Part shown: one piece after another, positions 9,370-36,023 of the stretch
Numbering within the stretch: the stretch's first letter is position 1
Layout: each line of letters starts with the position of its first letter
DNA from: Bacteroidota bacterium
GTDB lineage: Bacteria; Bacteroidota; Ignavibacteria; UBA10030
DNA: 54,655 bases
Direction of reading: 5' to 3'
NCBI GenBank assembly: GCA_040901865.1
Contig: JBBDYD010000006.1
Span: 1 to 54,655 of the forward strand
The notes under the pieces: generated by a model
Told to the model about the DNA's origin: nothing
Databases searched by the model: none
What the model saw: only the letters and a program-made list of their open reading frames with translations
Made by a program: the position numbers and the translations under genes

Positions 9370-9443
9370 GAACTCCCACCGCTGGAAGGAATTGCATGTG
9401 GGGGAAGCATTGGATACTTTTAAGCAAAAAGAAAGGTAATACC

Positions 9444-9728: not shown

Positions 9729-9742
9729 GGCCGGGAGGTCGT

Positions 9743-10405: not shown

Positions 10406-10417
10406 CCTCACGCCGGC

Positions 10418-11263: not shown

Positions 11264-11266
11264 ATT

Positions 11267-20275: not shown

Positions 20276-20404
20276 CTCTTTTTTTCAACGAATAGTTCTG
20301 AATGAAACAAACAGGAATGAATACCTAATTAAGAAAGTTTTCCCGTAAAACAAAACTGAATCGGATGATGAATTATGTCATCACGTGGTGATGGAATCAT
20401 GTAG

Positions 20405-21061
20405 TCATGTGGTGCGAGCAGCGCGATGTCGATCAATCCAATATCCCCACGCAACAAACAGCCACATCGCAAGCCCCACATATCCCAGAGTGTCTGACTC
20501 CGGCGGAGGCGGACCAAAAAGATTCCCGAGATACACAAGAACGAGAAAAATGATCAATGCCCAAAAGCTCCATGAACCGGTGCGGTCTATTGGCTTGGTC
20601 GACTGCATGTAAAGCCAAACGCCTCCGAGAAATAATCCGATTTCAAGGATGAGTGTTCCCACAAGCGAGTTCCAGAGTCCAAATCCGACGACCGTTTCAT
20701 ATCCGGGCAAAAGGGGAAGGTCCGGCCGATGAGTGACAAGATCCAGAATCCAATGACTCAGTACGCCAATTCCGACAACCAACGCCGCCTTGCGGTCTTT
20801 CCGGAGGAAAAAATAGACACCGCCAAGCAGAATCGACCACACGACGACTCCGCCCAGACTGTGGGAATAGGGATAGTTGTAGAAATCGAGTGGCGTTACG
20901 ACGGTGTTTCCGGGATCAACGCGAACGTTCTCAATGCCCAGAATGAGAAACAGCGGCCAAAGAAGATCGATGAACGATGTGGAAAGGATCATGGTCCCGA
21001 GCGAAACACGCGGAGCCGCTTTCTTCGCCGCCAGCGCGACTGCAAAATGTCCTATGAACAT
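20405..21061 (-). CDS. Membrane-bound metal-dependent hydrolase-like protein
   Basis: MFIGH, DLLW, YSHSL, SHWILD..HRPD motifs plus TM segments. Confidence 0.8.
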   Translation of the reverse strand: MFIGHFAVALAAKKAAPRVSLGTMILSTSFIDLLWPLFLILGIENVRVDPGNTVVTPLDFYNYPYSHSLGGVVVWSILLGGVYFFLRKDRKAALVVGIGVLSHWILDLVTHRPDLPLLPGYETVVGFGLWNSLVGTLILEIGLFLGGVWLYMQSTKPIDRTGSWSFWALIIFLVLVYLGNLFGPPPPESDTLGYVGLAMWLFVAWGYWIDRHRAARTT

Positions 21062-21092
21062 GGATTGATCCTTTTCTGTGAAATTTGCAAGT

Positions 21093-22190
21093 CTACGGGA
21101 TATTCAATAGTGCGTCTTCGTTCCAGAACCCCCGAATGGCAGTTCTCAGTCTACGCATTTCTGCCGAGAATTTCCCGGGTTCTTCCCAGAATGGGAAATG
21201 GGCGGAATACTCGAACCAAACGAGTTCCTTTTTTGGAGCTCGAAGATTGCTGAAATATTCGGCAGCGAGAACCGAAGGTGTGTTGTAGTCGTGCCGCCCC
21301 AGGAAGAAATAGATCGGAATGGAAAACTCGACGAGTGTTTCCTCCAGGGGGTACATCGGCACATCTTCGCGCATACGCCTCGAAACCATTGACGCCCCTT
21401 TCGGAACATTCAAAATGTCGAACAGATCATACTCCGGCGCCCAGAGCCCCGTCATGAGGATCGGTCCGTATCCCCTTGCCGCCCGGATTTCTCCTCCGTA
21501 ACGAAATAAATCCTCTTCGGTAATTGCTTCCCCCCGTAAGAGTCTTTCCATGAGCTGTTGATCGCGATGGGCCTTTGCCATGTTATAAAGAAATCTCCGC
21601 TGAACCACGTACCGCCGCAGAGAATCCGCCGACAGTTGTCCCATTCCGACATACGCCGAATAGTATTCAGGATGTTCCTTGATTGCCAGCAAGCCCAGCA
21701 GGGTTCCCCAGGAATGCGCTAGAAGAACGAGCCGATTCTTGCCAAATCGTCGAAGCAAGCTGGTGGTGAGTTCATAGGTATCGTTCAGCGTTTGACGAAC
21801 GGTGAGGGAATCGGACTCAACTCCGGCGTTGTATGATTTTCCCGCTCCCCTGCGATCCCAGTGGACCACAACAAACTCACGCTCCAAATCCTGCTGAAAC
21901 GAGTGAGCCAGGAACATTGCCGGCATGCCGGGACCGCCGTGCAAAAAGAGGATAATCGGGTTCGTTGAATCGGCGCTTCGGATGAGAATGAATTGATCGA
22001 CTCCACCAAGAGAAACTGTCTCAAGAGCCGCGACGCTGCCGGAGAGACGATTTCCCTGTTCATCGAGAATTTCCGGCGTTGTGCCTCGGAAGACGATGAA
22101 CTCGAGTGTCACGGCGGCAATAAGCACCGAAACGACACCGGCACAGATCACGAATATCATTCGAACAACAGATCGGGTGTGTGGTTTCAT
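21093..22190 (-). CDS. Alpha/beta hydrolase (proline iminopeptidase-like) with N-terminal membrane anchor
   Basis: LHGGPG, WDRRGAGKS, AHSWG nucleophile elbow, GRHD, SAHFP; start uncertain (22190-22214). Confidence 0.88.
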   Translation of the reverse strand: MKPHTRSVVRMIFVICAGVVSVLIAAVTLEFIVFRGTTPEILDEQGNRLSGSVAALETVSLGGVDQFILIRSADSTNPIILFLHGGPGMPAMFLAHSFQQDLEREFVVVHWDRRGAGKSYNAGVESDSLTVRQTLNDTYELTTSLLRRFGKNRLVLLAHSWGTLLGLLAIKEHPEYYSAYVGMGQLSADSLRRYVVQRRFLYNMAKAHRDQQLMERLLRGEAITEEDLFRYGGEIRAARGYGPILMTGLWAPEYDLFDILNVPKGASMVSRRMREDVPMYPLEETLVEFSIPIYFFLGRHDYNTPSVLAAEYFSNLRAPKKELVWFEYSAHFPFWEEPGKFSAEMRRLRTAIRGFWNEDALLNIP

Positions 22191-22273
22191 CCTAGTCACG
22201 TCAAAATACTTCAAAAAACCCGAATCACCAAGCGTGTGCAGGAAAAACGACCGTGCACGTGTTTTATCGAAAA

Positions 22274-22295
22274 TGATTTGAGCCTGTGGGCGGTT
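22274..22295 (+). repeat. Left copy of 22-bp imperfect direct repeat flanking the defence island
   Basis: TGATTTGAGCCTGTGGGCGGTT; 20/22 identical to 33023-33044, first 15 bp exact. Confidence 0.7.
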
Positions 22296-22405
22296 ACGAG
22301 TATTTCTAGTTCATCATTTTGACAAACGAACCACGTCGGGTAGATGGGTTAATGCAGAAGGGGGAAGAAATGAAAGTAATAGAACCAATCGGCAGAAACG
22401 GTCGA

Positions 22406-23365
22406 TTATAGGCCTATTAAATTGATTCTGGAACCTCGTTCGTTCAAAACGGCCCGGTATTGCTCGCGATGGGGGGGACTGAGAAAGCTGGACTCAATGA
22501 ACTGTACGGCATTCGGCAGAGTTTCCCTGAAGGATTTCAAGGAATTCTGAAGAACAACGTCACTTATGTCAAGGGATTTCGCCAGGGCGAGGAAATCGTT
22601 CTTCCGGAGCTGGCGCTTCTTCCCATTCACTGTTAGTGCCATCTCATCGAGGTCTTCGGGTAGAGCGATCTTGGTTGGCACGAGGTCGTAGACGGGAGAG
22701 AGGCCGATAATACCATCCTTGGTGCTGAGAAGCGAAAAATTTTTCAGATGCATGTCTGCGTTTCCTGTGAGGAATGAGAACAGGGCAACATGGAAGAATT
22801 CAAGGAGATCAAAGCCTCTGTTTTCTGAGAAGCGTTTTATGATCTTTCCCGCCCGCTCCATGGAACCATTGTACTTGTGTTCGGTGAGTTTCTCGTCGAG
22901 TTGGCAAAAATCCTCCATGTGAAATTTTTCGCGATCGACGCGATCGACGCGTCGTGTAATGTAGGCGAGTTCACCGGACCTGAGCCGAATGAGGGAATGC
23001 GGAACCGTTCGTATTTTGAATAGCTCGGCAAGATGAAGCGTCACATCTTCAAGCTCCGGCAGGGAATCGTACTCTTCTGAGGGCGGCTTCAGAACGTACT
23101 GCCCCCACATTCCGACAATAGTTAGGCGATTTCTTTTTACGGCTTCGTGGAATGTCTCAACATCCATGGAAATCTTGGCTTGGACACCGGTGACGCTGAT
23201 GCTGCTTTGCACGATTTGCCCGGCAAGGGCGTACATTTCATTGAGTGCATAAGGAATTTCCGGGGGATCGGGAGTTCCGAAGAATTTCCGGCTGCACGCA
23301 GCGTGGAAATCCCGTCCAGCATCATCGAGCGGTTGGTAGCACGAGAGGCATCGCTTTTCGCTCAT
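22406..23365 (-). CDS. HipA-family Ser/Thr kinase toxin lacking the N-terminal subdomain (HipT-like)
   Basis: SVTGVQAK Gly-rich loop, YVLKP, HMEDFCQL, GNADMHLKNFS, SPVYDL. Confidence 0.92.
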   Translation of the reverse strand: MSEKRCLSCYQPLDDAGRDFHAACSRKFFGTPDPPEIPYALNEMYALAGQIVQSSISVTGVQAKISMDVETFHEAVKRNRLTIVGMWGQYVLKPPSEEYDSLPELEDVTLHLAELFKIRTVPHSLIRLRSGELAYITRRVDRVDREKFHMEDFCQLDEKLTEHKYNGSMERAGKIIKRFSENRGFDLLEFFHVALFSFLTGNADMHLKNFSLLSTKDGIIGLSPVYDLVPTKIALPEDLDEMALTVNGKKRQLRKNDFLALAKSLDISDVVLQNSLKSFRETLPNAVQFIESSFLSPPHREQYRAVLNERGSRINLIGL

Positions 23366-23697
23366 CTAGGCTCTCCCTCCTGTTCAGGCACGATGCTTAC
23401 GGCTCCGATGCAGTCCCTGCAGCATGCCAGAAGCAGTCCCATCCTGTCTCTCGGATTCAACTTCCAGGTCTTTTCCGCGATTTCCAAAAGCCATCCCTCT
23501 GGAATGAGACCATCGAAAAACGGGATCATGGTGTTGCTCGAGTATTCCTCTGAGCGAAGTGGAAGGGTAAGGCTTACCGGAACGGCTTCGGGGCTCTCCA
23601 GATACGATTTGTTGTACTGAAAGTGGTATCCTGCATCGTCTTCGAAAATCCGACCTGCCGCTTTCTCCTTGAACATCACAGTTGCAGATCTACTCAT
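23362..23697 (-). CDS. Stand-alone HipA N-terminal domain protein (HipS-like antitoxin)
   Basis: YHFQY...VSLTLP...PFFDGLIPEGW...DCIGAV; ATG 23697 overlaps the HTH gene end. Confidence 0.88.
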   Translation of the reverse strand: MSRSATVMFKEKAAGRIFEDDAGYHFQYNKSYLESPEAVPVSLTLPLRSEEYSSNTMIPFFDGLIPEGWLLEIAEKTWKLNPRDRMGLLLACCRDCIGAVSIVPEQEGEPR

Positions 23698-23908
23698 CGG
23701 CTTCCTCCGACGGTGATTTGACAGGCCCCAGTTCGTGCCCGAAGAGGGCAAGAACTTGATTGACCTTGTCCATCCGCAGGCTGTTCTTTCCCTGTTCTAG
23801 CTCTCGTACGAGTCGCAGTCCCACTCCAGATCGCTTTGCGAGGTCTTCTTGGGTCATCCCAAGGGCCTTCCGTCTGGTTTTCACGAATGATATCAGGTGG
23901 TTTTCCAT
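23690..23908 (-). CDS. XRE/HTH regulator (HipB-like)
   Basis: RRKALGMTQEDLAKRSGVGLRLVRELEQGK; first gene of the hip operon. Confidence 0.9.
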   Translation of the reverse strand: MENHLISFVKTRRKALGMTQEDLAKRSGVGLRLVRELEQGKNSLRMDKVNQVLALFGHELGPVKSPSEEADE

Positions 23909-23933
23909 CGCCTATGATCCTTTCGAGAACAAA

Positions 23934-24034
23934 TTATACCATTTCGGGTATAATGTCAATACCAAATATAAAGTTTATACCCCTATGGGTATAATTCATC
24001 TAAAATGGCCATGTGAATACCCTTTCGGGTATAG
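23934..24034. promoter_or_regulatory. Three palindromic operators (TTATACC-N6-GGTATAA) overlapping the hip promoter
   Basis: 23934-23953 TTATACCATTTCGGGTATAA; 23975-23994 TTATACCCCTATGGGTATAA; 24015-24034 GAATACCCTTTCGGGTATAG. On the minus strand TTGACA (23959-23954) precedes TATAATTTG, with operator 1 between them. Confidence 0.85.
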
Positions 24035-24074
24035 CACACGACAAACACACGATGGAAATTTTAATAGTGGAACA

Positions 24075-25097
24075 ATGATCCAACCCCTCAATGACGATAA
24101 TGATCTGGATGTTGATCTTGTCTGCAGGCTTGAGGGAAAGCAGGCGGAATGGACACAGGCAGACCTGAAATGGGTTGTGGGGAATCGGCTCAAACAGAAC
24201 CGGACAATCGAAAAACTCCTCGTTCTCCCTGATGGCCGGAGATGCTGGACGATCAAGTACTCGGAGTCTGCAAAATTCCATATGGATGTATTGCCAGCTA
24301 TTGTCAGTAGCGGATACCGCACTGTCCTGGAAAAAGCATTTGCTGCGCGGGACATCGTTGGAGTTGATTCCCTGGCAATCAGAATCACGGATAAGAAGGA
24401 GGCAAATTACAGGACGGCAACACGTCCCGAGGAATGGTTAAAGTGCAACCCATTCGGATATGCCATTTGGTTCGAGCAAACGGGGAGCCTGCTATTTGGG
24501 AAGTCATCGATCATAAGGGAGGGACTTCAACCGGTTCCTCTTTATCGCAAAGAAAAACTACCTCTTCAGAGGGTAGTCCAACTCCTCAAGCGCCACAGAG
24601 ATATGATGTTCAATGGCGAAGATGACAAACCGATTTCAATAATCATCACAACGCTGGCGGCACGCGCTTACCGCAAGGAAGCAAACATCATTGACGCGCT
24701 ACTGAATATCGTCCGCCAAATGCCTAATGAAATCGAGGAACGGTACTCGCCGAAACACGGCAGGAATATCAGATGGATTGTCAATCCTGTCAATCCCGAA
24801 GAAAATTTCGCAGACAAATGGCCGGATGAGCGCAAAAAGGAAGAAAATTTCTATCGCTGGATGCGACAGGTAGACTTGGACTTACAGAACGTCATACAAC
24901 AGAGGGGAATCCCCATGATTCAAGAATCATTGGAAAAACCGTTCGGTAAGGACACGGTGAGGAAGGCCATTGGCAGCTACGCAGAGAATCTCCGAATACT
25001 CAGGGAAAGCGGAGGAATGAGAATGGCTGCCGGAACGGGGGCCCTTGGAAGCGTCGGCCCAACAACTGTGAAGAAGCATACATTCCATGGTCGGTGA
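24075..25097 (+). CDS. cGAS/DncV-like nucleotidyltransferase (CD-NTase, CBASS), apparently 5'-truncated
   Basis: GTMIQP..DLDVDLVC, RRCWTIKY, FHMDVLPA, NPFGYAIWF, PLQRVVQLLKRHRD, PISIIITTL, NPVNPEENFADKW, C-terminus HTFHGR. The upstream in-frame extension overlaps the HTH gene and operators and does not look homologous. Confidence 0.88.
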   Translation: MIQPLNDDNDLDVDLVCRLEGKQAEWTQADLKWVVGNRLKQNRTIEKLLVLPDGRRCWTIKYSESAKFHMDVLPAIVSSGYRTVLEKAFAARDIVGVDSLAIRITDKKEANYRTATRPEEWLKCNPFGYAIWFEQTGSLLFGKSSIIREGLQPVPLYRKEKLPLQRVVQLLKRHRDMMFNGEDDKPISIIITTLAARAYRKEANIIDALLNIVRQMPNEIEERYSPKHGRNIRWIVNPVNPEENFADKWPDERKKEENFYRWMRQVDLDLQNVIQQRGIPMIQESLEKPFGKDTVRKAIGSYAENLRILRESGGMRMAAGTGALGSVGPTTVKKHTFHGR

Positions 25098-25527
25098 TCG
25101 AACGCATACTGTGAATTTTGCTCTTCAGGGCAATAGAATACGAACTCTGTTTCCAGCGTCAGATCTGGTTGTGAGCCCGTTCAAACTTGTTTGGAGGCAC
25201 AGCATCACGCCTTCCAGTCTGAGTGCCACCTACGATGTCGAACTCGTCTATGTTAGGGATGATCATCCGAAGGTGTATATAGTGAATTCAAAGTTAGCCC
25301 TTTATCCGGGTGAATTGACACTTCCACATGTCTACGATAGTGAAAGACAATGGCTCTGTCTATATCGCAAGGGAGGCGGCGAGTGGAAGAGCAATATGTT
25401 CTTAGCGGATACGGTTATACCGTGGATTTCTGAATGGTTACTTCATTACGAGTGTTGGCTTTGCACAGGTGAATGGTGGGGTGGGGGAGTGCATTACAGA
25501 TTGAAAAAGAAGGAAGAAACAGATTGA
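25087..25527 (+). CDS. Prokaryotic E2-fold (ubiquitin-conjugating-like) CBASS ancillary protein
   Basis: TYDVELVY..PKVYI..LPHVY..WLCLY..EW..LADTVIPWISEWLLHYE.WL.TGEW.GGG.H; overlaps CD-NTase stop. Confidence 0.8.
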   Translation: MVGDRTHTVNFALQGNRIRTLFPASDLVVSPFKLVWRHSITPSSLSATYDVELVYVRDDHPKVYIVNSKLALYPGELTLPHVYDSERQWLCLYRKGGGEWKSNMFLADTVIPWISEWLLHYECWLCTGEWWGGGVHYRLKKKEETD

Positions 25528-26870
25528 GCATAAGGCGAGAAAAGAGAACACCAACCGGAAATAGAGAGAAATCGAGAACTCCTCCGCACGGAACGAACGC
25601 CAGAAATCCTCTTTTTGGCCGCGTACCAACAGGGTGGTCAGTGAAGAAGTTCTCGGATGTGTTTCGATTTCTGGGATCAGAACCGATCCCCAGAGACCTA
25701 CTCACGAAAGCAGGGGAGGGGTCACAAACATACTGCATACACTATGGGGACATTCATGCGAAATATACGAAGGAGATCCTAGACTTCGAGGTGGAATCGC
25801 AACAAGTGCCCGTTTTGAGGTCTAATGATGTGCTTTCACAAAAGCCTGACTACTTGATGAACGGGGATCTTGTAATTGCAGACGCTTCTGAAGACTATCA
25901 GGGGATTGCAGAAGCAGTGGAACTAAGAAATCTCAAAGGCAGGAGGGTGGTGGGGGGATTGCACACAATAACAGCCCGAGATACTGGTGGAGATACCTTA
26001 CCTGGATACAGAACTTACGCTTTAAGACATCCAGCGGTCAGAAAAAGGATCATGAGGGCAGCAAACGGCCTTTCAGTGTTTGGAATTTCGAAATCAAACC
26101 TATCGAAGATTGACATCCTTCTCCCTCCCAGGTAAGAACAAAAGTATATTGCATTGAGGTTGGAGACTTGGGAGGAAGCGATAACAATATTGGAAAATCT
26201 CATTGTTGAAAAAGAACTCCGCCGAAAGGCCCTCATGCAGCAACTTCTCACCGGGAAAAAGAGGCTACGTGGATTCAACGAAGAATGGGAAAAGCGAAAT
26301 CTCAGGGAAGTTCTCATCCCGACATTTCGACCAACGAATAAGCCAAACTCAAGCTTTCTCGCCCTTGGAATAAGAAGTCATGGAAAAGGCACCTTCCTTA
26401 AGCGCGAATTTGATCCTTCAAAAATAGATATGGACACACTGTACAGGGTCAAGGAAAACGACCTTATAGTGAACATCACGTTTGCATGGGAGGGAGCTAT
26501 AGCAATCGTTAATGGGGAAGATGATGGTGCCCTGGTTTCCCATCGATTCCCGACATACACATTCAACAAGAAGGCAGGTGTAGTCGACTATTTCCGTTAC
26601 GTTATTTTGCAGCCGAGATTGAAATACGTGCTCGGTCTGATTTCACCTGGAGGAGCAGGAAGAAACAGGGTCCTCAGCAAGACGGGCTTCTTAAAGCTGA
26701 CACTTCAGATGCCTGATGTTAAGGAGCAAGCAGCCATTGCAGATATTCTAAGAGCTGCAGATCGAGAACTGGATCTACTCAGGAACAAACTTGATGCCGT
26801 CATGGAACAAAAGAAGGGCTTGTTGCAAAAGCTCCTCACCGGACAAATTCGAGTCAACAGGGTGGACTGA
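25524..26870 (+). pseudogene. hsdS: Type I R-M specificity subunit interrupted by one in-frame TAA (26133-26135)
   Basis: GRVPTGW, TRD1, [24 protein letters not shown]2, [22 protein letters not shown]; both track ORFs are in the same frame; TTG 25524 overlaps the E2 stop. Confidence 0.88.
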
Positions 26871-27883
26871 TGGCAAAGACATTCAACATCCTAACTATCG
26901 ACGGCGGCGGGATTAGAGGGGTCTTCCCTGCAAAATTCCTTGCCAATTTCGAAGAGAGGCTTGTTGAGTTGAAGTATCCCAAAACGCATATTTATGAGCA
27001 TTTTGATTTTATTTCCGGTACGTCGACGGGCGGTATTATTGCGATTGCACTTGCGCTGGGAATACCTGCCAAAGAGATTCACGGCCTATACATGGAACAT
27101 GCCGCCGCCATCTTTGGGAACCGCCAACCTTGGTGGAAACGAGTGAGCTACTCTAGGTATCAATCTGCTATCCTTGAAGAAAAAGTAAGACAAACATTCA
27201 AGAACCATTTCAATGGGGTCGATCCGCGTTTGAGGGACGTCAAGGTTCCTGTTTGCGTCCCAATATTTGATCTGCTCGAGGGAAAACCGTCTGTTTTGAA
27301 GTCTAAGTATCACGGGAGATTTAACAAGGACTATCACATTCCGGCTTATCAGGCAGCGTTGGCAACGTCTGCGGCCCCCACATTCTTTGATCCCTACTCA
27401 AATTCTTACGAAAGGATCGACTCACAGAGCATCGAATCCTTTTCGAACAAGGTTGATGGAGGGATTTTTGCAAACAATCCCACCCTCCTAGCTCTCATTG
27501 AAGTTCAGAAAGGGTTCGGCAAGCGGTTGAATCAATTAAGAATTCTCTCGATTGGAACAGGGTCAAGGAAATACAGCGATGCAAACACGCGAGAGAAATG
27601 GGGGTTTTCTTATTGGTTCGGTCGCAGGAGAATCATCGATCTCTTTATGCAGAGCCAGTCACAGCACACAAGCAGTCTTCTGAGCCTTCTTCAAAAAGGG
27701 ATTGATAGGTCGGAGCAGGAGAATTTCAAATATCTTAGAATAGACGCCGCCTTCGATTCCGATTTTGACGTCGCTCTTGATGAAACGGATCCAGATAAAC
27801 TGAGAGCGTTGTCAGAAAAAGCTTCATTGGAATTTCAGATGCACGGCAATGAAGTCGTCAACCTCTTTACTTCGAAGAAATAG
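26870..27883 (+). CDS. Patatin-like phospholipase, CapV-like candidate CBASS effector
   Basis: DGGGIRG, GTSTGG (catalytic Ser), ATSAAPTFF, DGGIFANNP (catalytic Asp), LSIGTG; TGATG coupling to hsdS. Confidence 0.88.
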   Translation: MAKTFNILTIDGGGIRGVFPAKFLANFEERLVELKYPKTHIYEHFDFISGTSTGGIIAIALALGIPAKEIHGLYMEHAAAIFGNRQPWWKRVSYSRYQSAILEEKVRQTFKNHFNGVDPRLRDVKVPVCVPIFDLLEGKPSVLKSKYHGRFNKDYHIPAYQAALATSAAPTFFDPYSNSYERIDSQSIESFSNKVDGGIFANNPTLLALIEVQKGFGKRLNQLRILSIGTGSRKYSDANTREKWGFSYWFGRRRIIDLFMQSQSQHTSSLLSLLQKGIDRSEQENFKYLRIDAAFDSDFDVALDETDPDKLRALSEKASLEFQMHGNEVVNLFTSKK

Positions 27884-30800
27884 TGCCGGCCATGGAAACT
27901 CCCTCTTTTCGAGAAGATCATATAAGTCAAATCCCTGCTCTTCAATTACTGCAGAATCTGGGCTACCAGTACCTCGATCCCGATGAAGCCCTGAAACTGC
28001 GCTATGGGAAAACGACGAACGTTTTGTTGGAGGGAGTTCTTCGCAAGCAACTCGAGAAAATTAATTCAATCCAATACAAAGGTAATGCGTTTGGGTTCTC
28101 CCCGCAAAACATTCAGGCAGGGATTGAGGCACTCAAGGACCTTCCTATGCAGGAAGGCTATATGGCGACCTGCGAACATGTTTACAATCTTCTGACGCTG
28201 GGGAAATCTCTAGAGCAAACCCTCGATGGAGACAAGAAAAGCTACACGCTCCAATATATAGACTGGGACGACCCGAAGAATAATGTTTTTCATGTGATCG
28301 AGGAATTCCCAGTAATGCGCGCTGGAAGTCGTGATCATTATCGACCTGACATCGTTGTTTTTGTCAACGGGATCCCATTCGCGATCATCGAATGCAAGCG
28401 GCCCGATCTAAAAGATCCGCTCAAACAAGCAATTTCACAACATCTTCGGAATCAACAGGAAGATGGGATTCGAAATCTATACGTCTATGCCCAGGTTGTC
28501 CTGAGCATAGCAACCAACCAAGCACTCTACGGAACCAATGGGACAGAAGAAGAATATTGGGCAAAGTGGGAAGAACGGATCGAAGATCCCAATGAACGAG
28601 AAAAATACTTTGATTGTCTTCTTCAATTGAAGAATCGTCCACTGGCGATTGAAGAGAAGGATGCCCTTTTTGCCGATCGATTTCGATATGTGCGGCGGCA
28701 CTTTGACGAGCTTGAGAAAACGAGGCTCACACGCACAAGCCAGGATGAGTACCTCTACGGCTTGCTCAGAACGGAGCGACTCATTGATTTGGTTCACAAT
28801 TTTGTTGTCTTCGAAGCCGGAGTCAAGAAAATCGCCAGATATCAACAGTTTTTTGTTCTTAAGAAGACGATGGATCGCATTCGGACTTTCGAGGGGGGGA
28901 AACGCAAGGGAGGAGTGATTTGGCATACGCAAGGGAGCGGGAAATCGTTAACTATGGTTATGCTTGCGCAAGCCATTGCCTTGGATAAGTCCATATTGAA
29001 TCCAAAAATCGTTCTGGTGACGGACCGCGTTGATCTCGATGAACAGATAACCGGAACATTCAAAAAGTGTCGCATTGACGTTCAGAACGCTGTCACCGGT
29101 AAAAACCTAATCGGACTCTTGGAAAGCAAGAGTGATGCAGTCATTACAACCATTATTAATAAGTTCGAAACTGCACTGAAGCACGCGCATAAGTCATTTG
29201 ATTCGCCGGAGATTTTCGTACTTGTCGATGAAGGGCACCGCACGCAATACGGGTCATTTAACATCCAGATGACAAAAGTGCTTCCCAATGCATGCTTTGT
29301 CGCAATGACTGGGACGCCTTTGATGAAGAAGGAGAAGAATACAGCTGCTCGGTTTGGAGGGATTATCGATACGTATACTGTCGATGTCGCCGTCAAGGAT
29401 AAGGCTGTAGTCCCGCTCCTATACGAAGGCAGGCACGCACTCCAAAAGGTCAACGAGAAACCGATCGACACATTTTTTCAAATGGTTTCTGAGCCGCTTA
29501 CTGAGTATCAGCGAGCGGATCTGAAAAAGAAATTCGCAAGGGCAGAGCCATTAAATGTTGCCGATCAGAAGATTTACGCAATAGCATGGGACTTGAGCAT
29601 TCACTTTCGCGATACCTGGCAAGGGACGGGGTTCAAGGGACAACTTGTTTGTCAAAGCAAGGACTCGGCGATCCGCTACAAGAACCATCTCGATGAAATT
29701 GGAATCGTTTCCACAGAGGTTCTCATATCTCCACCCGATGACCGGGAGGGGGAAGAAAGTGCTTATGGAAAGACCCCGGAGCGCGTAAAGTCATTCTGGG
29801 GTCGAATGATGCAGGAGCACGGCACTCCGAAAAAGTACGAGCAGAACATTATCAGTCGTTTCAAAAACCAGCCGAAGCCTGAAATTATCATCGTCGTTGA
29901 TAAGCTTCTAACAGGTTTTGACGCCCCCCTTAATACGGTCCTCTATTTGACAAGAAAACTACAGGAACACACTCTTTTACAAGCTATAGCAAGAGTTAAC
30001 CGAATCTATCCTGGAAAGGACTTCGGGTATATCATCGACTATTATGGCGTCCTGGCGGAGCTCGACGAAGCGCTTAAGAATTACTCGAGCTACGAGGATT
30101 ACGATGCAGCGGATCTCGCTGGGACGGTTACGAACATCCGAGAAGAGGTTAGGAAACTTCCCCAGCGCCAGTCTGAGGTCTGGGAAATATTCAAGACGAT
30201 CGAAAACAAGAAGGACGAAGAGGCCTTTGAGCGCCTCCTTCGTGATGAAGCACTGCGATCATCATTCTATGAAAGATTGTCGAGGTATTCCCGTTCACTC
30301 AGGCTTGCACTGTCAACTATTGAGTTTCACAAAGAAAATCCCGAAGCCACCATCAATAGGTACAAGCAAGAAATGGCTTTCTTCCTTGGCCTTCGATCTT
30401 CTGTTGCCCAACGTTATTCCGACGTGATCGACTATTCTGCATATGAAGAGCAGATTCAAAACCTTATCGATAAACACATTGAAACGGATTCAGTGAAGCC
30501 GATCACCCGCTTGGTAAATATCTTCGATACGGATGCCTTTGAACAAGAATTAGAGGAGACTGAAGGCGTTGGCGCACGGGCCGACAAAATTGCTTCCAGG
30601 ACGGCGCGCCATATCACCGAGAAGATGGAAGAAGACCCGGCTTTCTACAAGAAGTTCTCAGAAATGTTGAGAGAGGCAATCAGAGACTACGAAGAGCATC
30701 GATTGTCCGAGATTCAATACCTCAATAGAGCAAGGGAGATCATGGATGCAGTTCTGTCATATACAGACAAGGATCTCCCTGCTGAACTTGTCAACCAGGA

Positions 30801-31113
30801 GGTTGCGCGAGCCTTCTATGGAATATGTCGGTCCGAGCTTGAGCCAAAGATACAGGATGGAGCAGTCCTAAGGCAAACCAGCGTGTCGGCGGCCTTGGCC
30901 CTGGACGAAATAGCAAAGCGGCTTATCATGGACGATGGCAAACCTATCATCGATTGGCAGGACAGAGGTGATATTACAGGGAGGGTCCTTATTGAGATCG
31001 GTGACTTTCTTATCGATGAAGTGAAAGACAAGTATCATCTAGACATGTCATTCGACGAAATTGATCAGATTGCGGACAGGTGCCTTGAAGTGGCGAAGGT
31101 ACGTTACAAATGA
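27883..31113 (+). CDS. hsdR: Type I restriction endonuclease subunit R
   Basis: RPDIVVFVNGIP..IECK nuclease motif, WHTQGSGKS, VTDRVDL, DEGHR, MTGTP, KLLTGFDAP, LQAIARVNR. Confidence 0.96.
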   Translation: MPAMETPSFREDHISQIPALQLLQNLGYQYLDPDEALKLRYGKTTNVLLEGVLRKQLEKINSIQYKGNAFGFSPQNIQAGIEALKDLPMQEGYMATCEHVYNLLTLGKSLEQTLDGDKKSYTLQYIDWDDPKNNVFHVIEEFPVMRAGSRDHYRPDIVVFVNGIPFAIIECKRPDLKDPLKQAISQHLRNQQEDGIRNLYVYAQVVLSIATNQALYGTNGTEEEYWAKWEERIEDPNEREKYFDCLLQLKNRPLAIEEKDALFADRFRYVRRHFDELEKTRLTRTSQDEYLYGLLRTERLIDLVHNFVVFEAGVKKIARYQQFFVLKKTMDRIRTFEGGKRKGGVIWHTQGSGKSLTMVMLAQAIALDKSILNPKIVLVTDRVDLDEQITGTFKKCRIDVQNAVTGKNLIGLLESKSDAVITTIINKFETALKHAHKSFDSPEIFVLVDEGHRTQYGSFNIQMTKVLPNACFVAMTGTPLMKKEKNTAARFGGIIDTYTVDVAVKDKAVVPLLYEGRHALQKVNEKPIDTFFQMVSEPLTEYQRADLKKKFARAEPLNVADQKIYAIAWDLSIHFRDTWQGTGFKGQLVCQSKDSAIRYKNHLDEIGIVSTEVLISPPDDREGEESAYGKTPERVKSFWGRMMQEHGTPKKYEQNIISRFKNQPKPEIIIVVDKLLTGFDAPLNTVLYLTRKLQEHTLLQAIARVNRIYPGKDFGYIIDYYGVLAELDEALKNYSSYEDYDAADLAGTVTNIREEVRKLPQRQSEVWEIFKTIENKKDEEAFERLLRDEALRSSFYERLSRYSRSLRLALSTIEFHKENPEATINRYKQEMAFFLGLRSSVAQRYSDVIDYSAYEEQIQNLIDKHIETDSVKPITRLVNIFDTDAFEQELEETEGVGARADKIASRTARHITEKMEEDPAFYKKFSEMLREAIRDYEEHRLSEIQYLNRAREIMDAVLSYTDKDLPAELVNQEVARAFYGICRSELEPKIQDGAVLRQTSVSAALALDEIAKRLIMDDGKPIIDWQDRGDITGRVLIEIGDFLIDEVKDKYHLDMSFDEIDQIADRCLEVAKVRYK

Positions 31114-31808
31114 AAAAAAGGAGCATCGATTTTGGATCGAAGAGGATTGAATATTCCTTAATGTTCAATCATCGCAAAACTCTGGGGATTGCTGTCACCC
31201 CTGAAATGGAAGTCGTGGTAAAAGCACCATCGGGGGCCCCGATTGAGAAAATTGATTTTCTTGTAAGAAAACGGGCCGCGTGGATTTTAAGGCAAAAAGA
31301 CTTCTTTCTGGGCTTCTATCCCAAACAGCCGCAAAAGCGATTCATAGGAGGTGAAACACATTTATATTTGGGCAAGCAATATCGACTGAAGGTTCTGAGC
31401 GGAAGAACGGAGTCCGTGAAGTTGCGGGGGAAATACTTCGAGGTGACTTGCAGTAAAGCTCGGAGTGCAAAGGGGTTGATGAGTGAATGGTATTTGTTTC
31501 ATGCTGAATGGAAATTCCAGGAAATTGTTGAGGAATGCCTTTCCTATTTCAAGAAAGTGAATTTTGACTCGAAGGATGTCGAAATTCGTGAAATGTCGAA
31601 ACGGTGGGGAAGTTGCACGGCAAGAGGCAGGATCATTCTAAATCTTCAACTCATTAGGGCACCAAGAGGATGCATTGAATACGTGGTGATTCACGAGCTT
31701 TGCCACTTAACTCATAGGAATCACAACAAAAATTTCGTCGATCTTCAAACACGAATAATGCCCGATTGGGCAATCTGGAAAGACAGGCTCGAGAGACTTC
31801 TGGCCTGA
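31110..31808 (+). CDS. M48/YgjP-like (DUF45) zinc metallohydrolase
   Basis: RWGSC, IEYVVIHELCH..H.NH; ATGA overlap with hsdR; typical hsdR neighbour. Confidence 0.9.
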   Translation: MKKRSIDFGSKRIEYSLMFNHRKTLGIAVTPEMEVVVKAPSGAPIEKIDFLVRKRAAWILRQKDFFLGFYPKQPQKRFIGGETHLYLGKQYRLKVLSGRTESVKLRGKYFEVTCSKARSAKGLMSEWYLFHAEWKFQEIVEECLSYFKKVNFDSKDVEIREMSKRWGSCTARGRIILNLQLIRAPRGCIEYVVIHELCHLTHRNHNKNFVDLQTRIMPDWAIWKDRLERLLA

Positions 31809-31828
31809 AAAATCGAAAGGAAGAAATC

Positions 31829-32059
31829 ATGGGAAAGAACGTCCACGTAGTTAAGAGCGGCGATCGGTGGGCCGTCAAAGAAGAGGGACGCAAGACGCCT
31901 CTCTCAACGCATAAGTCACAGGAACTTGCCCGCCAGAATGCGGTTCCTTTGGCCAAGGAGAACAAATCCGAGGTGGTGATCCACGGGCGCGACGGGAAGA
32001 TTCGGGACAAGGATAGCTATGGGGATGACCCCAATCCCCCTAAAGATACAAAGCATTGA
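31829..32059 (+). CDS. DUF2188-family small protein
   Basis: HVVKSGDRWAVKEEG..TH.SQ..A...EVVIHGRDGKIRDKDSYG.DP.PP. Confidence 0.85.
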   Translation: MGKNVHVVKSGDRWAVKEEGRKTPLSTHKSQELARQNAVPLAKENKSEVVIHGRDGKIRDKDSYGDDPNPPKDTKH

Positions 32060-32964
32060 CAACCCCGCCCTCAGACAACTGGATGATACACCGGCGCAGC
32101 ATCAGTAAAGATTTGCAGGAGGCCGCTGCGTGGCTGAAAGCAATCAACATTGATTTTGAAAATTCACGATTTGCTCAATATGCGAATCATCTGAAACGCG
32201 CCGAAGGTGGACAACTTGATCAAAGTGGACATGACTCGGCAATCGAGGCATCTGACCTTTACATGATCTACCGTGGTCTTTCACGTCTCGATCACCCAAA
32301 TCTTCACCAAAAGCTGAAGATCTTTGTTGAGAGCGGCCCCCTTCATTCATCTCAAGAACGCCCCGGCGGGGCTACTGGCTTGGCCAGAAACACGGCTTTG
32401 GAACTACTCATTGCATCCCAGTTTGCTCTTGCCGGTTATGACCTCGATTTCAACACTACTTCTGATGTCGCTTTTCGAGACGGCAGAACCATGTTTCACG
32501 TGGAATGCAAACGGCCCTTCACATACAACGGAGTCAAAAAGAACATTGAGAGGGCTTACAGTCAGCTTCGTCACCGATACAGAGATTCAATTGGGTCAAC
32601 CGCGCGCGGGCTTGTTGTGCTTTCAATCGCTAAGTTCTCGAATCCCATGAACCAGACTCTGAGCATTTCTGATGATAGAGAGCTTGTTGCATTCATGAGC
32701 GGGCGATTTGAGGAATTCCTGAGAGCACATCAGAGATTGTTCTACAGAAACCATGACGAGAGAACCATGGCAGTTCTTGCTTACCTTCAGATCGCAGTTG
32801 CATATCAAGACAGAAAAGGCACAGGAATACACCGCCAATTTGCTGGAATGTACCTTAGCACGGTGAATCCAACTGACATAAAATACATGAACCCCGATCG
32901 GTTGTACTTTCATGAAATAGTGGAAAGAATTAATCGATCGAACAAAAACGCTCTGCGAAATTAG
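32056..32964 (+). CDS. Hypothetical protein, possible PD-(D/E)XK nuclease fold
   Basis: 302-aa ORF with TTG overlapping the DUF2188 stop; ELLIA..F...SDVAF...HVECKRP..AYSQL pattern. Confidence 0.6.
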   Translation: MTTPPSDNWMIHRRSISKDLQEAAAWLKAINIDFENSRFAQYANHLKRAEGGQLDQSGHDSAIEASDLYMIYRGLSRLDHPNLHQKLKIFVESGPLHSSQERPGGATGLARNTALELLIASQFALAGYDLDFNTTSDVAFRDGRTMFHVECKRPFTYNGVKKNIERAYSQLRHRYRDSIGSTARGLVVLSIAKFSNPMNQTLSISDDRELVAFMSGRFEEFLRAHQRLFYRNHDERTMAVLAYLQIAVAYQDRKGTGIHRQFAGMYLSTVNPTDIKYMNPDRLYFHEIVERINRSNKNALRN

Positions 32965-33022
32965 ACGCTTGATATTCTCTCCCCCACTTTCTCATATACC
33001 AGCAGTTTTTCTGACCGGAGCG

Positions 33023-33044
33023 TGATTTGAGCCTGTGAGTGGTT
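33023..33044 (+). repeat. Right copy of 22-bp imperfect direct repeat flanking the defence island
   Basis: TGATTTGAGCCTGTGAGTGGTT; matches 22274-22295 at 20/22. Confidence 0.7.
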
Positions 33045-33202
33045 TTGCCTATTTTCCTTTTCGCATTCTCATCAAAGAAGGGAATCATCCATGGGGCAGG
33101 CCATCTTCGTCCTTGTCATCATGCTGTTCGGAGGGGCAACGGTTCTTTCGCAGGACGGGGCGTGGATCGGAGGGCCGGGAATCGGATTCTTTGACGGGAA
33201 TA

Positions 33203-33230
33203 CAGAGGCCAGAGGTCAGACATCAGAAGT
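33203..33230. repeat. Tandem heptamer repeat, 4 imperfect units
   Basis: CAGAGGC CAGAGGT CAGACAT CAGAAGT. Confidence 0.65.
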
Positions 33231-33431
33231 CGGCTTGCCCCGAATGTTTTTTTCGGGGCTTGCCCCAACGAAGTCGGGGAGGTCGGAGGCAAGCGAATGG
33301 TTTAGCGGGATTGAAAAACGAAAACATCAAAAGACAAACGGAAATGAAACAGAAAAACGTAAAAGGGAATGTGTATTTTGCCTTTTATTCCGCCTTTAGC
33401 GGAATTGTGACATGCCTGAGTTGCAATCAGA

Positions 33432-33498
33432 CCCGGGATTTATCCCGGGGCGTAGAAGCGGCAATCCAATACAAACCCAAGAGCTCCGTAGGAGCGGC
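33432..33498. repeat. REP-like palindromic cluster
   Basis: CCCGGGA-TTTA-TCCCGGG hairpin (33432-33449); near-direct repeats CGTAGAAGCGGC (33451) and CGTAGGAGCGGC (33487). Confidence 0.5.
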
Positions 33499-33505
33499 CT
33501 AATCT

Positions 33506-34714
33506 ATGAGCAAATCCAACATCGATCCAAAGTCCCTCAGTCTTTCCACCCGTGCGATCCACGGGAACAAGCTGTATGCATACAAAGGCCCCGTATCGCT
33601 GCCGATCTACCAGACGACGAATTACCGGTTTGAGAATTCCGGGGACGCAGTTCGCTATGCGCAGGGAGATCCATCGGTCTATGTGTACACCCGCTATCAC
33701 AACCCCACGGTTCAGAATGTGGAAGAGAAGCTCGCCCTCATGGAAGGAGCAGAAGATGCCGCCCTGTTTGCAAGCGGCATGGCGGCCATCTCCACGGCAA
33801 TTCTTTCCGCTGCGTCATCGGGCGACGACATCATCAGCACGCCCGGGCTCTATGGCGGAACATACCGGTTCTTCCGGGACGAGCTACCCAAAACAGGAAT
33901 CACGGTGCGGTATGCAGATCCGGAGCGCCTGGAATCCATTGAAACCCTGGTCACGCCCCGGACCCGTATTGTCTACAGTGAATCTCCGACAAATCCGACT
34001 CTGGGAATCGTCGACATCGCGCAGTTGGTGAGTCATGTGAGGAAAGCCGAACAGAAAATCGGTCAACGCATCATCATCATGATGGATAATACGTTTGCGA
34101 CGATCTTGAATCAGGATCCGTTTTCCCTGGGTGTGGATGTGATCGTGGAAAGCGCCACGAAATACCTGGGTGGCCATAGTGATGTGATGGCGGGCGTCGT
34201 GCTGGGATCAAAAGATCTTCTTGGCTCGGTGCGTACAACGGCCAAGTACTACGGGGGCTGTGCAGACCCTTTTGCCGCGTACCTGTTGTTCCGTAGTCTG
34301 AAGACCTTTGAACTCCGTGTTGAACGTCAAAATGCAAACGCGCTTGAGTCACACCCGAACGTCGCGCGAACACTCTACCCCGGACTCCCGTCACATCCCG
34401 GATTCAAGATCGCGACGCAACAGATGAAGGGGTTCGGCGGAATGATAACGATTGACGTAAAGCCAAAGAAATCGGCGTCACCGGTTCTCGCCGCCGTTGC
34501 GGTGTGCGATCACCTCCGCATCGCCGTCAATGCCATGTCTTTGGGTGGCGTCGAAACGCTGGTGAGCATTCCGGTCTATTCATCCCACATCAATCTGACC
34601 GATGACGAATTAAGAAAACACAGGGTGACGAGCGGAATGATTCGGATTTCGGTCGGGATCGAGGGCGTGCAGGACCTTATTGCAGATTTCCGGCAGGCGC
34701 TTGAGTACGCATGA
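33506..34714 (+). CDS. Trans-sulfuration PLP enzyme (cystathionine gamma-synthase/lyase or methionine gamma-lyase family)
   Basis: PIYQTTNY, YTRYHNPT, FASGMAAI, ESPTNP, DNTFA, SATKYLGGHSD, SLGGVETL, RISVGIE. Confidence 0.93.
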   Translation: MSKSNIDPKSLSLSTRAIHGNKLYAYKGPVSLPIYQTTNYRFENSGDAVRYAQGDPSVYVYTRYHNPTVQNVEEKLALMEGAEDAALFASGMAAISTAILSAASSGDDIISTPGLYGGTYRFFRDELPKTGITVRYADPERLESIETLVTPRTRIVYSESPTNPTLGIVDIAQLVSHVRKAEQKIGQRIIIMMDNTFATILNQDPFSLGVDVIVESATKYLGGHSDVMAGVVLGSKDLLGSVRTTAKYYGGCADPFAAYLLFRSLKTFELRVERQNANALESHPNVARTLYPGLPSHPGFKIATQQMKGFGGMITIDVKPKKSASPVLAAVAVCDHLRIAVNAMSLGGVETLVSIPVYSSHINLTDDELRKHRVTSGMIRISVGIEGVQDLIADFRQALEYA

Positions 34715-34715
34715 A

Positions 34716-35282
34716 TTATCTAACAGGCGAAGCGAGAATCACAGAATAGGGTTGGGTTGAATCGCCCGCCCCGGTTGCTACCACGAATGATTCCGCTTTG
34801 AACGCGCCCCGATCGAAGATCAGCACTCTCCAAACTGCGGACGTGTCCCGTTCGCCGACCGTGAAGGGGCGAGCGAAAAGGGGTTTTTTGTTTTCGACAA
34901 TCCAGAGCTGATAGGGTTTGTCGGCGGGCGGCAAATGATCGATCTGAAGGGCGGCTTGATGTGTTTCGGTGTTCCAGAAGACTTTCCCGCGCGCAAGAGA
35001 ACTGTTTCCGGCAGCCATGAGGAGATGAAGCCGCACATTCGCTGATCCCACAATGTCCAGAACACCCGAAAGCGTTCGCATCCGGGCGCGGGCTTCCGCC
35101 AGATCGCCAGCCTGCCGATCGATTGTGCCGATCAGAGTTTCCGAGTATTGCCAGAAACCGATGAAAATGGCCAGAAGGGCAACAAGCGTCAGCGACCCCA
35201 TCCAGTTGCGGTAGGAGGATCGGCCCTGTTGACCCGTCCCATTCGTGCCTCTTTCGATCTTTTTCTTTGTTTTGCGTTTCAT
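34716..35282 (-). CDS. Anti-sigma factor RskA-like membrane protein
   Basis: Single TM, coiled segment, then HLPPADKPYQLWI resembling the RskA C-terminal domain. Confidence 0.6.
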   Translation of the reverse strand: MKRKTKKKIERGTNGTGQQGRSSYRNWMGSLTLVALLAIFIGFWQYSETLIGTIDRQAGDLAEARARMRTLSGVLDIVGSANVRLHLLMAAGNSSLARGKVFWNTETHQAALQIDHLPPADKPYQLWIVENKKPLFARPFTVGERDTSAVWRVLIFDRGAFKAESFVVATGAGDSTQPYSVILASPVR

Positions 35283-35369
35283 AAAAACGAACGACCGTTC
35301 AATCTAGTCAGTGATTGAGCGAAAATCAATTTGAATCAAGAAGCGAGAATCGTCCGCTTTATCCTCCCA

Positions 35370-35936
35370 ATGAACCTGCAACCGGAACGGATTGAAGAAT
35401 TCCTGAAGCGGCGACAACGCAGCGAACTGGATCGGCCTGATCTGGTGCATGCGGGTGTCTTGATTCTGCTCTTTCACAAGAATACCGAGCTTCATGTTCT
35501 TCTGACAAAGCGATCATCGGACGTCGAGCACCACAGGGGACAGATTTCTTTTCCCGGTGGGGCGGTGGATGATAATGACGCGGATATTATTGCCACCGCG
35601 GTGCGGGAGACGGAAGAAGAGATCGGAATCCCGGCTTCAGTCATCAACGTGCTCGGCCTGTTTGACGATACCTGGACTCCGTCCGGGTTCCGGATTACGC
35701 CGGTCATCGGATTCACGCATGCCCGACCCGAAGTTCGCCTCAATCCCATCGAGGTGGAAGAAGTTCTCGAGGTACCGCTGTCTTTTTTTCTTGATCCGCG
35801 GAACGAAAGGGTAAAGGAATTAACGCGTGGTGGAGCAACAGTGGACGTCTATTTCTACACGCATGGCACGAATGAAATCTGGGGGGCGACAGCGGCAATG
35901 CTTCGTTCACTGGTCCGTGCACTTGACGCCAGTTAA
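35370..35936 (+). CDS. Nudix CoA pyrophosphatase
   Basis: LLTKRS..H.GQISFPGG, AVRETEEEIG Nudix box, IWGATA; start uncertain (35331 or 35370). Confidence 0.92.
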   Translation: MNLQPERIEEFLKRRQRSELDRPDLVHAGVLILLFHKNTELHVLLTKRSSDVEHHRGQISFPGGAVDDNDADIIATAVRETEEEIGIPASVINVLGLFDDTWTPSGFRITPVIGFTHARPEVRLNPIEVEEVLEVPLSFFLDPRNERVKELTRGGATVDVYFYTHGTNEIWGATAAMLRSLVRALDAS

Positions 35937-35954
35937 AGCGGATAAAAAAAATCT

Positions 35955-35983
35955 TTGGAAATCAGCCGATTGTTTGCCATATT
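35955..35983 (+). promoter_or_regulatory. Putative sigma70-type promoter of rpsT
   Basis: TTGGAA-N17-CATATT 40 bp upstream of the ATG. Confidence 0.45.
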
Positions 35984-36023
35984 GAGGCAGTAGTAAGGTT
36001 GGAACGTCTAATAGGAGAATGGA

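Follow-up and report, generated by a model that had tools for sequence, protein, structure and literature searches.

CBASS genes divided by hsdS inside type I restriction-modification operons: a decayed copy in a Bacteroidota genome and its relatives in metagenomes

Gene content of the locus

The locus considered here lies in a draft genome of a Bacteroidota bacterium (Ignavibacteria, UBA10030; assembly GCA_040901865.1), and the window, that is the whole 54,655-nucleotide stretch that was analyzed (contig JBBDYD010000006.1, positions 1 to 54,655), is an entire contig (C6) of a 220-contig, 3.0-Mb assembly that is 93% complete. Between positions 24,075 and 32,964, genes of a cyclic oligonucleotide-based antiphage signaling system (CBASS) are interleaved with genes of a type I restriction-modification (R-M) system (Table 1). 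A first-pass annotation, made from the sequence alone, had placed a cyclase (cGAS/DncV-like nucleotidyltransferase, CD-NTase), an E2 protein, hsdS, a patatin, hsdR, an M48 peptidase, and a DUF2188 protein on one strand, and this was confirmed with Pfam, PADLOC, and NCBIfam. The overlapping stop and start codons that it listed were likewise all found, as was the separation of the cyclase-E2 pair from the effector by hsdS, whereas the type I R-M system that it described proved incomplete, with hsdM missing.

The genes are tightly packed, with an 11-nt overlap at the cyclase/E2 junction, the TTG start of hsdS overlapped by the E2 stop, 1-nt overlaps at hsdS/patatin and patatin/hsdR, and 4-nt overlaps at hsdR/M48 and between the DUF2188 gene and the last open reading frame (ORF) of 302 aa. 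The DUF2188 gene most likely starts at ATG 31829, 20 nt past the M48 stop. The 1.35-kb hsdS parts E2 from the patatin, leaving the CBASS genes non-contiguous. A promoter/terminator scan of positions 22300-33700 gave 14 + 10 sites compared to 13.7 + 11.5 in shuffled sequence and was uninformative on operon structure.

The patatin scored 265.7 bits against NCBIfam CBASS_lipase (cut-off 200) and kept the GGGIRG, GTSTGG (GxSxG), and DGG motifs in alignments, and the aligned E2 possesses both the conserved LCLY cysteine, presumably the catalytic residue, and the conserved C-terminal HYE.W..G.W.GGG block. HsdR contains the Pfam domains HSDR_N, SWI2_SNF2, T1R_D3-like, and T1RH-like_C, scored 464 bits against TIGR00348 (cut-off 284.55), and along the entire protein shares 65-68% identity with HsdR of the relatives L017 and L019 (L and G numbers denote relatives' loci and WIN the window's copy). 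The first target recognition domain (TRD1) of the window's hsdS product resembles that of L035 (41% identity) and its C-terminal half is 56% identical to L091. The 302-aa ORF is present as the first-pass annotation described, but its putative nuclease label draws only on a sub-threshold match to Pfam HSDR_N (E 0.0012, 19.2 bits, cut-off 25.1) and on the automatic names of the nearest Atlas clusters (DUF3644 and restriction endonuclease family), which are leads only.

Table 1. Features of the interleaved locus and of the adjoining toxin-antitoxin module (positions in the window).
Feature	Position	Strand	Evidence
cyc1, 5'-truncated CD-NTase	24051..25097	+	PADLOC Cyclase PDLC00780 1.1e-108; sole in-frame ATG 24075
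CBASS E2 (Cap2-like, E2 only), apparently intact	25087..25527	+	PADLOC E2 8.3e-46
hsdS, two TRDs, interrupted	25524..26870	+	Pfam Methylase_S; PADLOC Specificity_I 1.2e-41
CapV-type patatin phospholipase effector, apparently intact	26870..27883	+	Pfam Patatin 1.8e-23; PADLOC Effector Phospholipase 6.6e-95
hsdR, 1076 aa, full length, 0 internal stops	27883..31113	+	TIGR00348 8e-139
YgjP-like (M48-type) metallopeptidase	31110..31808	+	Pfam YgjP-like 1.2e-52
DUF2188 protein (PADLOC candidate PDC-S16)	31829..32059	+	Pfam DUF2188 1.5e-18; PADLOC PDC-S16 2.3e-26
302-aa protein, uncharacterized family; possible PD-(D/E)XK-like nuclease (weak evidence)	32056..32964	+	
HipT-like kinase toxin (HipA C-terminal domain)	22406..23365	-	Pfam HipA_C 3.8e-40
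HipS-like protein (separate HipA N-terminal domain)	23362..23751	-	Pfam Couple_hipA 2.8e-26
HipB-like helix-turn-helix (HTH) repressor	23690..23908	-	Pfam HTH_3 2.1e-09
Three palindromes TATACC-N6-GGTATA, spacing 41 + 40 bp	23934..24035	.	pattern vs shuffles

Decay of the window's copy

The window's locus is a decayed copy in an ordinary decaying island. HsdM of the same R-M family gave no tblastn match in window positions 20000-36000, the HsdM of L017 used as query gave none in the 93%-complete assembly, and a Pfam N6_Mtase search of the assembly returned two weak partial matches only, both on other contigs (34 and 21 bits). The cyclase lacks its 5' end: the PADLOC Cyclase match covers profile positions 53-387 of 388, the BLASTP alignment with L014 (61% identity) begins at L014 residue 60, and a full-length relative searched against the window's own genome matched with query residues 61-406 only, from position 24051. 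Cyclase homology begins at ~24051-24054, upstream of the sole in-frame ATG (24075), and in an alignment with nine relatives ~60 conserved N-terminal residues were replaced by unrelated sequence. The GS motif, which is GSF in all nine aligned relatives, reads GNF in the window and lies upstream of the sole ATG, while the DxD motif and the third Asp are retained; the catalytic core (N-terminal helices, GS, DxD, and third Asp) is complete in L017, L019, L068, and L035 and incomplete in the window. An upstream cyclase start at TTG 23760 was considered and rejected, because it would run antisense through the hipB-like gene and its putative operators over sequence with no similarity to a cyclase N-terminus. 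The hsdS gene retains both TRDs and both conserved regions (central and C-terminal), with the frame split by an in-frame TAA at 26133-26135 immediately 5' of the conserved central 'EQ', and no second cyclase follows the patatin.

The break and the TAA are not binning artifacts, because a contig built by another assembler from the same reads, those of the probable source run, reproduces positions 21500-33452 without differences (depth 12.6). Among sequencing runs, the probable source sample was the sole one listed with this sequence, and no RNA run was. Since hsdM is absent, the cyclase truncated, and hsdS interrupted, neither restriction nor CBASS signaling should work as encoded; the lack of HsdM precludes both methylation and a restriction complex in this copy, and signaling is improbable for a cyclase that has lost the N-terminal region and the GS motif. 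The decay would be recent, because the frames for E2, CapV, HsdR, the M48 peptidase, the DUF2188 protein, and the 302-aa protein are still open.

Recurrence of the embedded order in metagenomes

Metagenomes were scanned with an alignment of two cyclase sequences, and from the 336 relatives identified the 80 best were retained as loci; window and locus proteins were mapped onto all 80 by tblastn and other ORFs were named with Pfam and PADLOC. A scan of species-representative genomes gave three loci only, L014 among them. Hsd genes of the window's R-M family lay beside the cyclase in 12 of the 80 metagenome loci, and these 12, together with the window, hold defense genes between the hsd genes of one operon. 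The genes of the embedded metagenome loci are intact ORFs, and their hsdM/cyc1 and hsdS/patatin junctions are separated by 0-2 nt or overlap.

The arrangement is not a one-off, an outcome that the first-pass annotation had left open, as the order hsdM-cyclase-E2-hsdS-effector with tight junctions was found in four further loci, where hsdS is followed by a patatin (L019, L068, and L071) or by Cap5 (L035). The first three share the order (half-hsdS)-hsdM-cyc1-E2-hsdS-patatin-cyc2-X-hsdR-M48, where X is SoFic, an SLFN/AlbA_2-HATPase_c_4 protein, or GGDEF plus a phosphoesterase, and L035 is organized as hsdM-SLFN-cyc1-E2-hsdS-Cap5-hsdR. The same start of the order was displayed by L014/L018, L021, and L056 before their contigs end; L014, a 3.5-kb contig of a Bacteroidetes metagenome-assembled genome (L018 being the same contig), reads hsdM (3' part)-cyclase (61% identity)-E2-hsdS with no Cap5 between hsdM and the cyclase. 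Other embedded loci keep the CBASS genes together, either before hsdS, as in L017 and L020 (hsdM-Cap5-cyc1-E2-hsdS-other cargo-hsdR-M48) and probably L091, which has an identical cyclase to the Cap5-bearing L075, or after it, as in L048 and L038 (hsdM-hsdS-cyc1-E2-patatin-cyc2). Of the seven loci, window included, in which cyc1-E2 comes before an hsdS with both sides visible, five have the effector after hsdS and two have it before the cyclase. The cyclase-E2 pair lies immediately 5' of hsdS in 11 of the 13 embedded loci of known context (the 12 metagenome loci and the window). An M48 gene directly follows hsdR in all five loci with a visible hsdR 3' end (WIN, L017, L019, L020, and L068), and the YgjP-like peptidase is thus regarded as the fixed partner of this R-M family's hsdR.

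In L019, the gene directly 5' of hsdM (L019:7696-8253; Methylase_S 1.4e-11) is hsdS-like and encodes a single domain in 185 aa, and such a half-hsdS precedes hsdM in six loci (L017, L019, L021, L035, L048, and L068), so these R-M operons encode an extra half specificity subunit. Further cargo in the R-M gaps (L019:14717-15802; L068:14632-16353; L035:4594-6348; L071:5490-7015; L020:4291-6300) comprised SoFic (PADLOC 2.4e-120), SLFN/AlbA_2 and HATPase_c_4 proteins, and a GGDEF protein with a calcineurin-like phosphoesterase, with L020 carrying a DUF3800 gene (PDC-M04A), a phosphatase-like ORF, and a weak GIY-YIG-like ORF. The hsdR of L068 (L068:16636-20289) encodes 1217 aa, and was recovered by tblastn as two pieces, between which ~435 nt of extra in-frame sequence are inserted compared to the window's hsdR. 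Outside these metagenome loci, megablast of window positions 23300-33600 against complete E. coli genomes gave no match and viral contigs scanned with the cyclase alignment gave no relatives, and a tblastn search of plasmids with the L019 cyclase matched 33 records, all below 60% identity (31.7-40.3% among the 15 matches listed).

Compact relatives of the same CBASS family

The window's cyclase-E2 family normally occurs in compact operons with Cap5 or a patatin. The order Cap5(SAVED-HNH)-cyclase(-E2), with no hsd genes of the window's family, was found in 60 of the 80 loci, many of them near-identical gut contigs (a quick tree had 61 different rows among 83); four loci had cyclase-E2-Cap5, one (L051) had cyclase-E2-patatin-second cyclase without hsd genes, and three were too short to classify. 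In a sample of 401 genomes of the window's phylum (the window's own, G000, included), the patatin matched 17 genomes at E <= 1e-30, G000 counted, and the two best patatin relatives, G131 and G417, displayed compact cyc1-E2-patatin(-cyc2) operons without hsd matches, G417 lacking both a second cyclase and Cap5. The cyclase matched eight of the 401 genomes at E <= 1e-60, with the contexts of G329, G233, G232, G419, and G316 left out. A second cyclase follows the patatin in six of the seven relatives with visible downstream sequence (L019, L068, L071, L048, L051, and G131), G417 being the exception. The first-pass annotation had considered that the closest homologues might occur only in separate CBASS and R-M loci, which holds in part: interleaved relatives exist, and the same cyclase-E2-patatin set is also found in compact form without hsd genes (L051, G131, and G417).

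Clusters with two CD-NTases in the order cyc1-E2-patatin-cyc2 (L051:1634-5175; L112, from G131, 8673-12244 on the minus strand; L048:9785-13374) were observed both free and inside R-M operons, and the second cyclase of L019 matches PADLOC Cyclase PDLC00774. A DUF2188 gene (PDC-S16-like) lies ~60-100 bp 5' of Cap5 in three free loci (L030:8274-8525, L039:8282-8533, and L076:8462-8677) and may thus associate with this CBASS family besides the window's R-M operon.

Histories of the R-M backbone and the CBASS parts

Identities and trees point to separate histories for the R-M backbone and the CBASS parts. The congruence between gene trees that the first-pass annotation proposed to look for was not borne out, as L019 and L068 share 92% amino acid identity in HsdM, 91% in the C-terminal half of HsdS, 92% in cyc2, 95% in HsdR, and 93% in the M48 peptidase compared to 60% in cyc1, 69% in E2, and 78% in the patatin. 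At the DNA level, the same pair is 85.5% identical in hsdM, 69.5% in cyc1-E2, unalignable in TRD1, 84% identical from the hsdS C-terminal half to cyc2, and 86% identical in hsdR. Fast evolution of CBASS genes was rejected as the reason why L019 and L068 differ so much in cyc1, because cyc1 reaches 91% identity in the pair L068/L071 and 95% in L019/L021, equaling or exceeding the identity of the hsd genes in these pairs. The cyclase-E2 block between hsdM and TRD1 therefore appears to have been exchanged between near-identical R-M backbones.

Cyclases of the diverged lineages with the split order are 54-64% identical, and the window's E2 is closest to that of L017 (58%). In a careful cyclase tree of 30 rows, from which 55 of the 83 quick-tree rows (mostly near-identical Cap5-type loci) were omitted and to which G131 and G417 were added, the embedded cyclases fell into two groups. 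The first, a starred clade (support 99/98), comprises L014, L020, WIN, L017, L055, L019, and L021, and within it WIN groups with L017 (87/70); the second (86/92) comprises L035, L056, L091 together with the free L073, L068/L071, and L048/L038, and cyc1 of L019 and L068 lie in different starred clades. A single clade of all patatin-linked cyclases was rejected by the approximately unbiased (AU) test (p-AU 4.7e-41), a value weakened, like that of the other group tested, by both groups having been named after the first tree was seen. Effectors appear on this evidence to have been swapped repeatedly, and the alignments displayed no insertions that distinguish embedded from free cyclases, E2s, or patatins.

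The adjoining hipBST-like module and the island borders

Three overlapping ORFs of a hipBST-like module lie on the strand opposite to the CBASS/R-M genes, at the place expected for hsdM and the 5' end of the cyclase (Table 1). The TATACC-N6-GGTATA palindromes (three matches compared to 0.03 expected, with none of 100 shuffles reaching three) are situated upstream of the hipB-like gene, reach to ~15 bp from the cyclase break, and are likely operators of the toxin-antitoxin module. The remaining CBASS/R-M genes may be read divergently from this palindrome-bearing regulated region. The module resembles the three-component HipBST toxin-antitoxin systems in its HTH repressor, split-off HipA N-domain protein, HipA C-domain kinase, overlapping operon, and upstream palindromes, and differs in that it merely adjoins CBASS/R-M genes on the opposite strand. 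A perfect 9-nt inverted repeat (TTTCCATCG / CGATGGAAA, at 23902-23910 and 24050-24058) brackets the operator region, with one arm at the hipB-like start and the other at the onset of cyclase homology, and may reflect chance or be the trace of a rearrangement.

The island extends over ~21991-33505, as a same-genus genome has both flanks on one contig with ~3 kb between them, and the GC fraction is 0.470 in 24075-32964 compared to 0.529 in the window outside the island. A ~250-bp multi-copy repeat lies at the right edge (33206-33457), where the assembly depth rises from 12.6 to 59; further copies with 75-97% identity occur in the same-genus genome and, within the window's own genome, on at least six other contigs (C187, C147, C140, C39, C48, and C190). 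A scan of the window detected no tRNAs and therefore no tRNA-linked integration site.

A recurring composite defense operon as the probable explanation

The window's locus is probably best explained as the decayed copy of a recurring composite defense operon, whose intact copies would provide layered defense and whose split order would have arisen by recombination. The intact form, as represented by the metagenome loci, is a type I R-M operon of half-hsdS, hsdM, hsdS, hsdR, and M48 peptidase with cargo in its two inner gaps, the CBASS cyclase and E2 occupying the gap between hsdM and hsdS and the effector that between hsdS and hsdR. As effector, these operons encode a CapV patatin, with a second cyclase often next in line, except for one locus with the Cap5 SAVED-HNH nuclease. 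The genes, packed stop to start, are probably transcribed together as one transcript, or a few, from hsdM on. From the known roles of these families, restriction would act first on unmodified phage DNA and, separately, infection would induce the nucleotide signal of the cyclase, itself regulated by E2, which would activate the phospholipase or Cap5 and kill the cell. CBASS would be an independent abortive-infection back-up in a layered defense with no physical coupling of the two systems, and their independence, transcription, and activity in the intact copies are put forward here as proposals.

Recombination in conserved hsd segments has long been known to reshuffle TRDs. The split order would derive from recombination among related R-M operons in which hsdM, the center of hsdS, and hsdR serve as conserved homology arms, with cargo carried along with the exchanged TRDs, as suggested by the mosaic pattern, and it can arise in this way without selection. 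Several points weigh against such an account. The split order recurs with two effector families and survives deep divergence, which could equally reflect selection for the order. A single clade of all R-M-embedded cyclases was not rejected (p-AU 0.141, weakened as noted above), so that one old capture into this R-M family followed by long retention is possible, and such a history fits a functional link as well as neutral hitchhiking. The proposed route also needs several steps, and no intermediate with duplicated parts was present among the loci examined. Regarding the decay, hsdM could sit in the unassembled 7% of the genome and the TAA in hsdS could leave two half-subunits.

The first-pass annotation had favored a functional hybrid in which, by analogy with PrrC in EcoprrI, the cyclase-E2 pair would monitor or be regulated by the R-M complex and the phospholipase would be triggered when phage inhibitors block restriction, and this appears rather improbable. 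Equally doubtful is the premise that the order cyclase-E2/hsdS/effector is itself selected and CBASS wired to the R-M complex so that the phospholipase fires when restriction is neutralized, with, e.g., E2 or the cyclase sensing a stalled or inhibited HsdM-HsdS-HsdR in a cyclic-nucleotide version of the PrrC guard. The interleaved order in at least four diverged lineages (WIN; L019/L021; L068/L071; L035) with two effector families would fit such wiring, as would the co-expression implied by tight junctions, the frequent placement of the cyclase-E2 pair immediately before hsdS (11 of 13), and the unrejected single clade of embedded cyclases. However, the same gene sets are compact without hsd genes (Cap5-cyc1(-E2) in 60 of 80 loci and cyc1-E2-Cap5 in four, with L051, G131, and G417 for the patatin), a whole CBASS can occupy one gap upstream (L017 and L020) or downstream (L048 and L038) of hsdS, the CBASS and backbone histories are incongruent, and embedded and free proteins lack distinguishing insertions. 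The R-M-embedded systems treated in the works drawn on here also act on their own (TgvAB, PMC11411939). In a weaker version, the conserved hsd segments would be a dedicated vehicle that exchanges defense cargo together with DNA-specificity domains.

The window's cyclase-E2 and patatin might instead be remnants of two CBASS systems rather than partners, an unlikely but serious alternative in which Cap5-cyc1-E2 would have occupied the first gap, with Cap5 lost along with hsdM, and patatin-cyc2 the second, with the cyclase lost. The window's cyclase groups with those of L017 (87/70) and L020 in the starred clade, both of which have Cap5 directly upstream, its E2 is closest to that of L017, and a second cyclase usually follows the patatin in relatives; patatin then cyclase is also the order of capV-dncV. 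Set against this, G417 demonstrates that the three-gene set cyc1-E2-patatin exists alone, L014 of the same clade has the cyclase directly after hsdM without Cap5, and the window's patatin stop overlaps the hsdR start without a scar. An assembly or binning artifact, or a unique chance rearrangement, would suit a 220-contig draft with broken genes at the locus, but its probability is close to nil given the second assembly, which is independent in assembly only, and the recurrence of the order in metagenome contigs that are unrelated and stem from other samples.

The interest of the arrangement lies in the intact relatives and not in the window's copy. A multi-gene signaling system is divided in them by an R-M gene and yet remains intact and tightly packed across diverged lineages. 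Relatives of the L019 type offer a clonable test case for whether co-embedded defenses share expression only or interact, and hitchhiking with specificity-domain exchange between related R-M operons is suggested as a mechanism for cargo spread. Annotation rules demanding contiguous CBASS genes may miss or mislabel split loci.

Comparison with known systems

The CBASS parts compare most directly with type II 'short' CBASS, in which a CD-NTase and an E2-only Cap2 homologue are combined with either a CapV patatin or Cap5 SAVED-HNH as effector. The same three protein families are present here, and the free relatives have the orders Cap5-cyc1-E2, cyc1-E2-Cap5, and cyc1-E2-patatin. In contrast, hsdS interrupts the operon in the window, L019, L068, L071, and L035, hsdM (in the relatives) and hsdR flank it, a second CD-NTase follows the patatin in several loci, and the window's cyclase is truncated.

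The R-M operon as host of foreign genes has precedents, PrrC in EcoprrI being a defense gene embedded in a type I R-M operon. With a PrrC-type guard, the loci described here have only the effector position between hsdS and hsdR in common, and homology to PrrC did not turn up, although no search aimed at it was made. According to the passages of the cited works drawn on here, PrrC is also named in the 'guilt-by-embedding' survey of Payne et al. (2024 preprint, 10.1101/2024.01.29.577857), which reported that type I R-M systems often hold embedded genes, many of them for defense; TgvAB is embedded in a type I R-M operon of Vibrio cholerae VPI-2 (PMC11411939); and DarTG2 is embedded in a type I R-M system of the enteropathogenic Escherichia coli (EPEC) RptR island, where the hsdS-hsdR gap was termed a potential recombination hotspot (PMC12255303). 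The survey is linked to the present loci by its candidates PDC-S16, the window's DUF2188 protein, and PDC-M04A, the DUF3800 protein of L020. Its main text differs in describing no known multi-gene system divided over two gaps and has no occurrence of 'CBASS', 'hsdS', 'split', or 'interleaved', although its figures and supplements may list CBASS as embedded. Full-text literature searches, with supplements outside their scope, turned up no account of a type I R-M operon that has a CBASS embedded in it or that splits one. Defense cargo inside type I R-M operons is already known, whereas a CBASS divided over both gaps was not found described.

The likeness to PrrC, TgvAB, and DarTG2 lies in foreign defense genes placed between hsd genes with a shared operon, the hsdS-hsdR gap holding the patatin in the window and Cap5, SoFic, SLFN-like, or DUF3800 genes in relatives. 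The difference is that each of those systems is a whole one- or two-gene system in one gap, whereas in the loci described here a three- or four-gene signaling system is split by hsdS, the first gap being occupied by sensor and regulator and the second by the effector.

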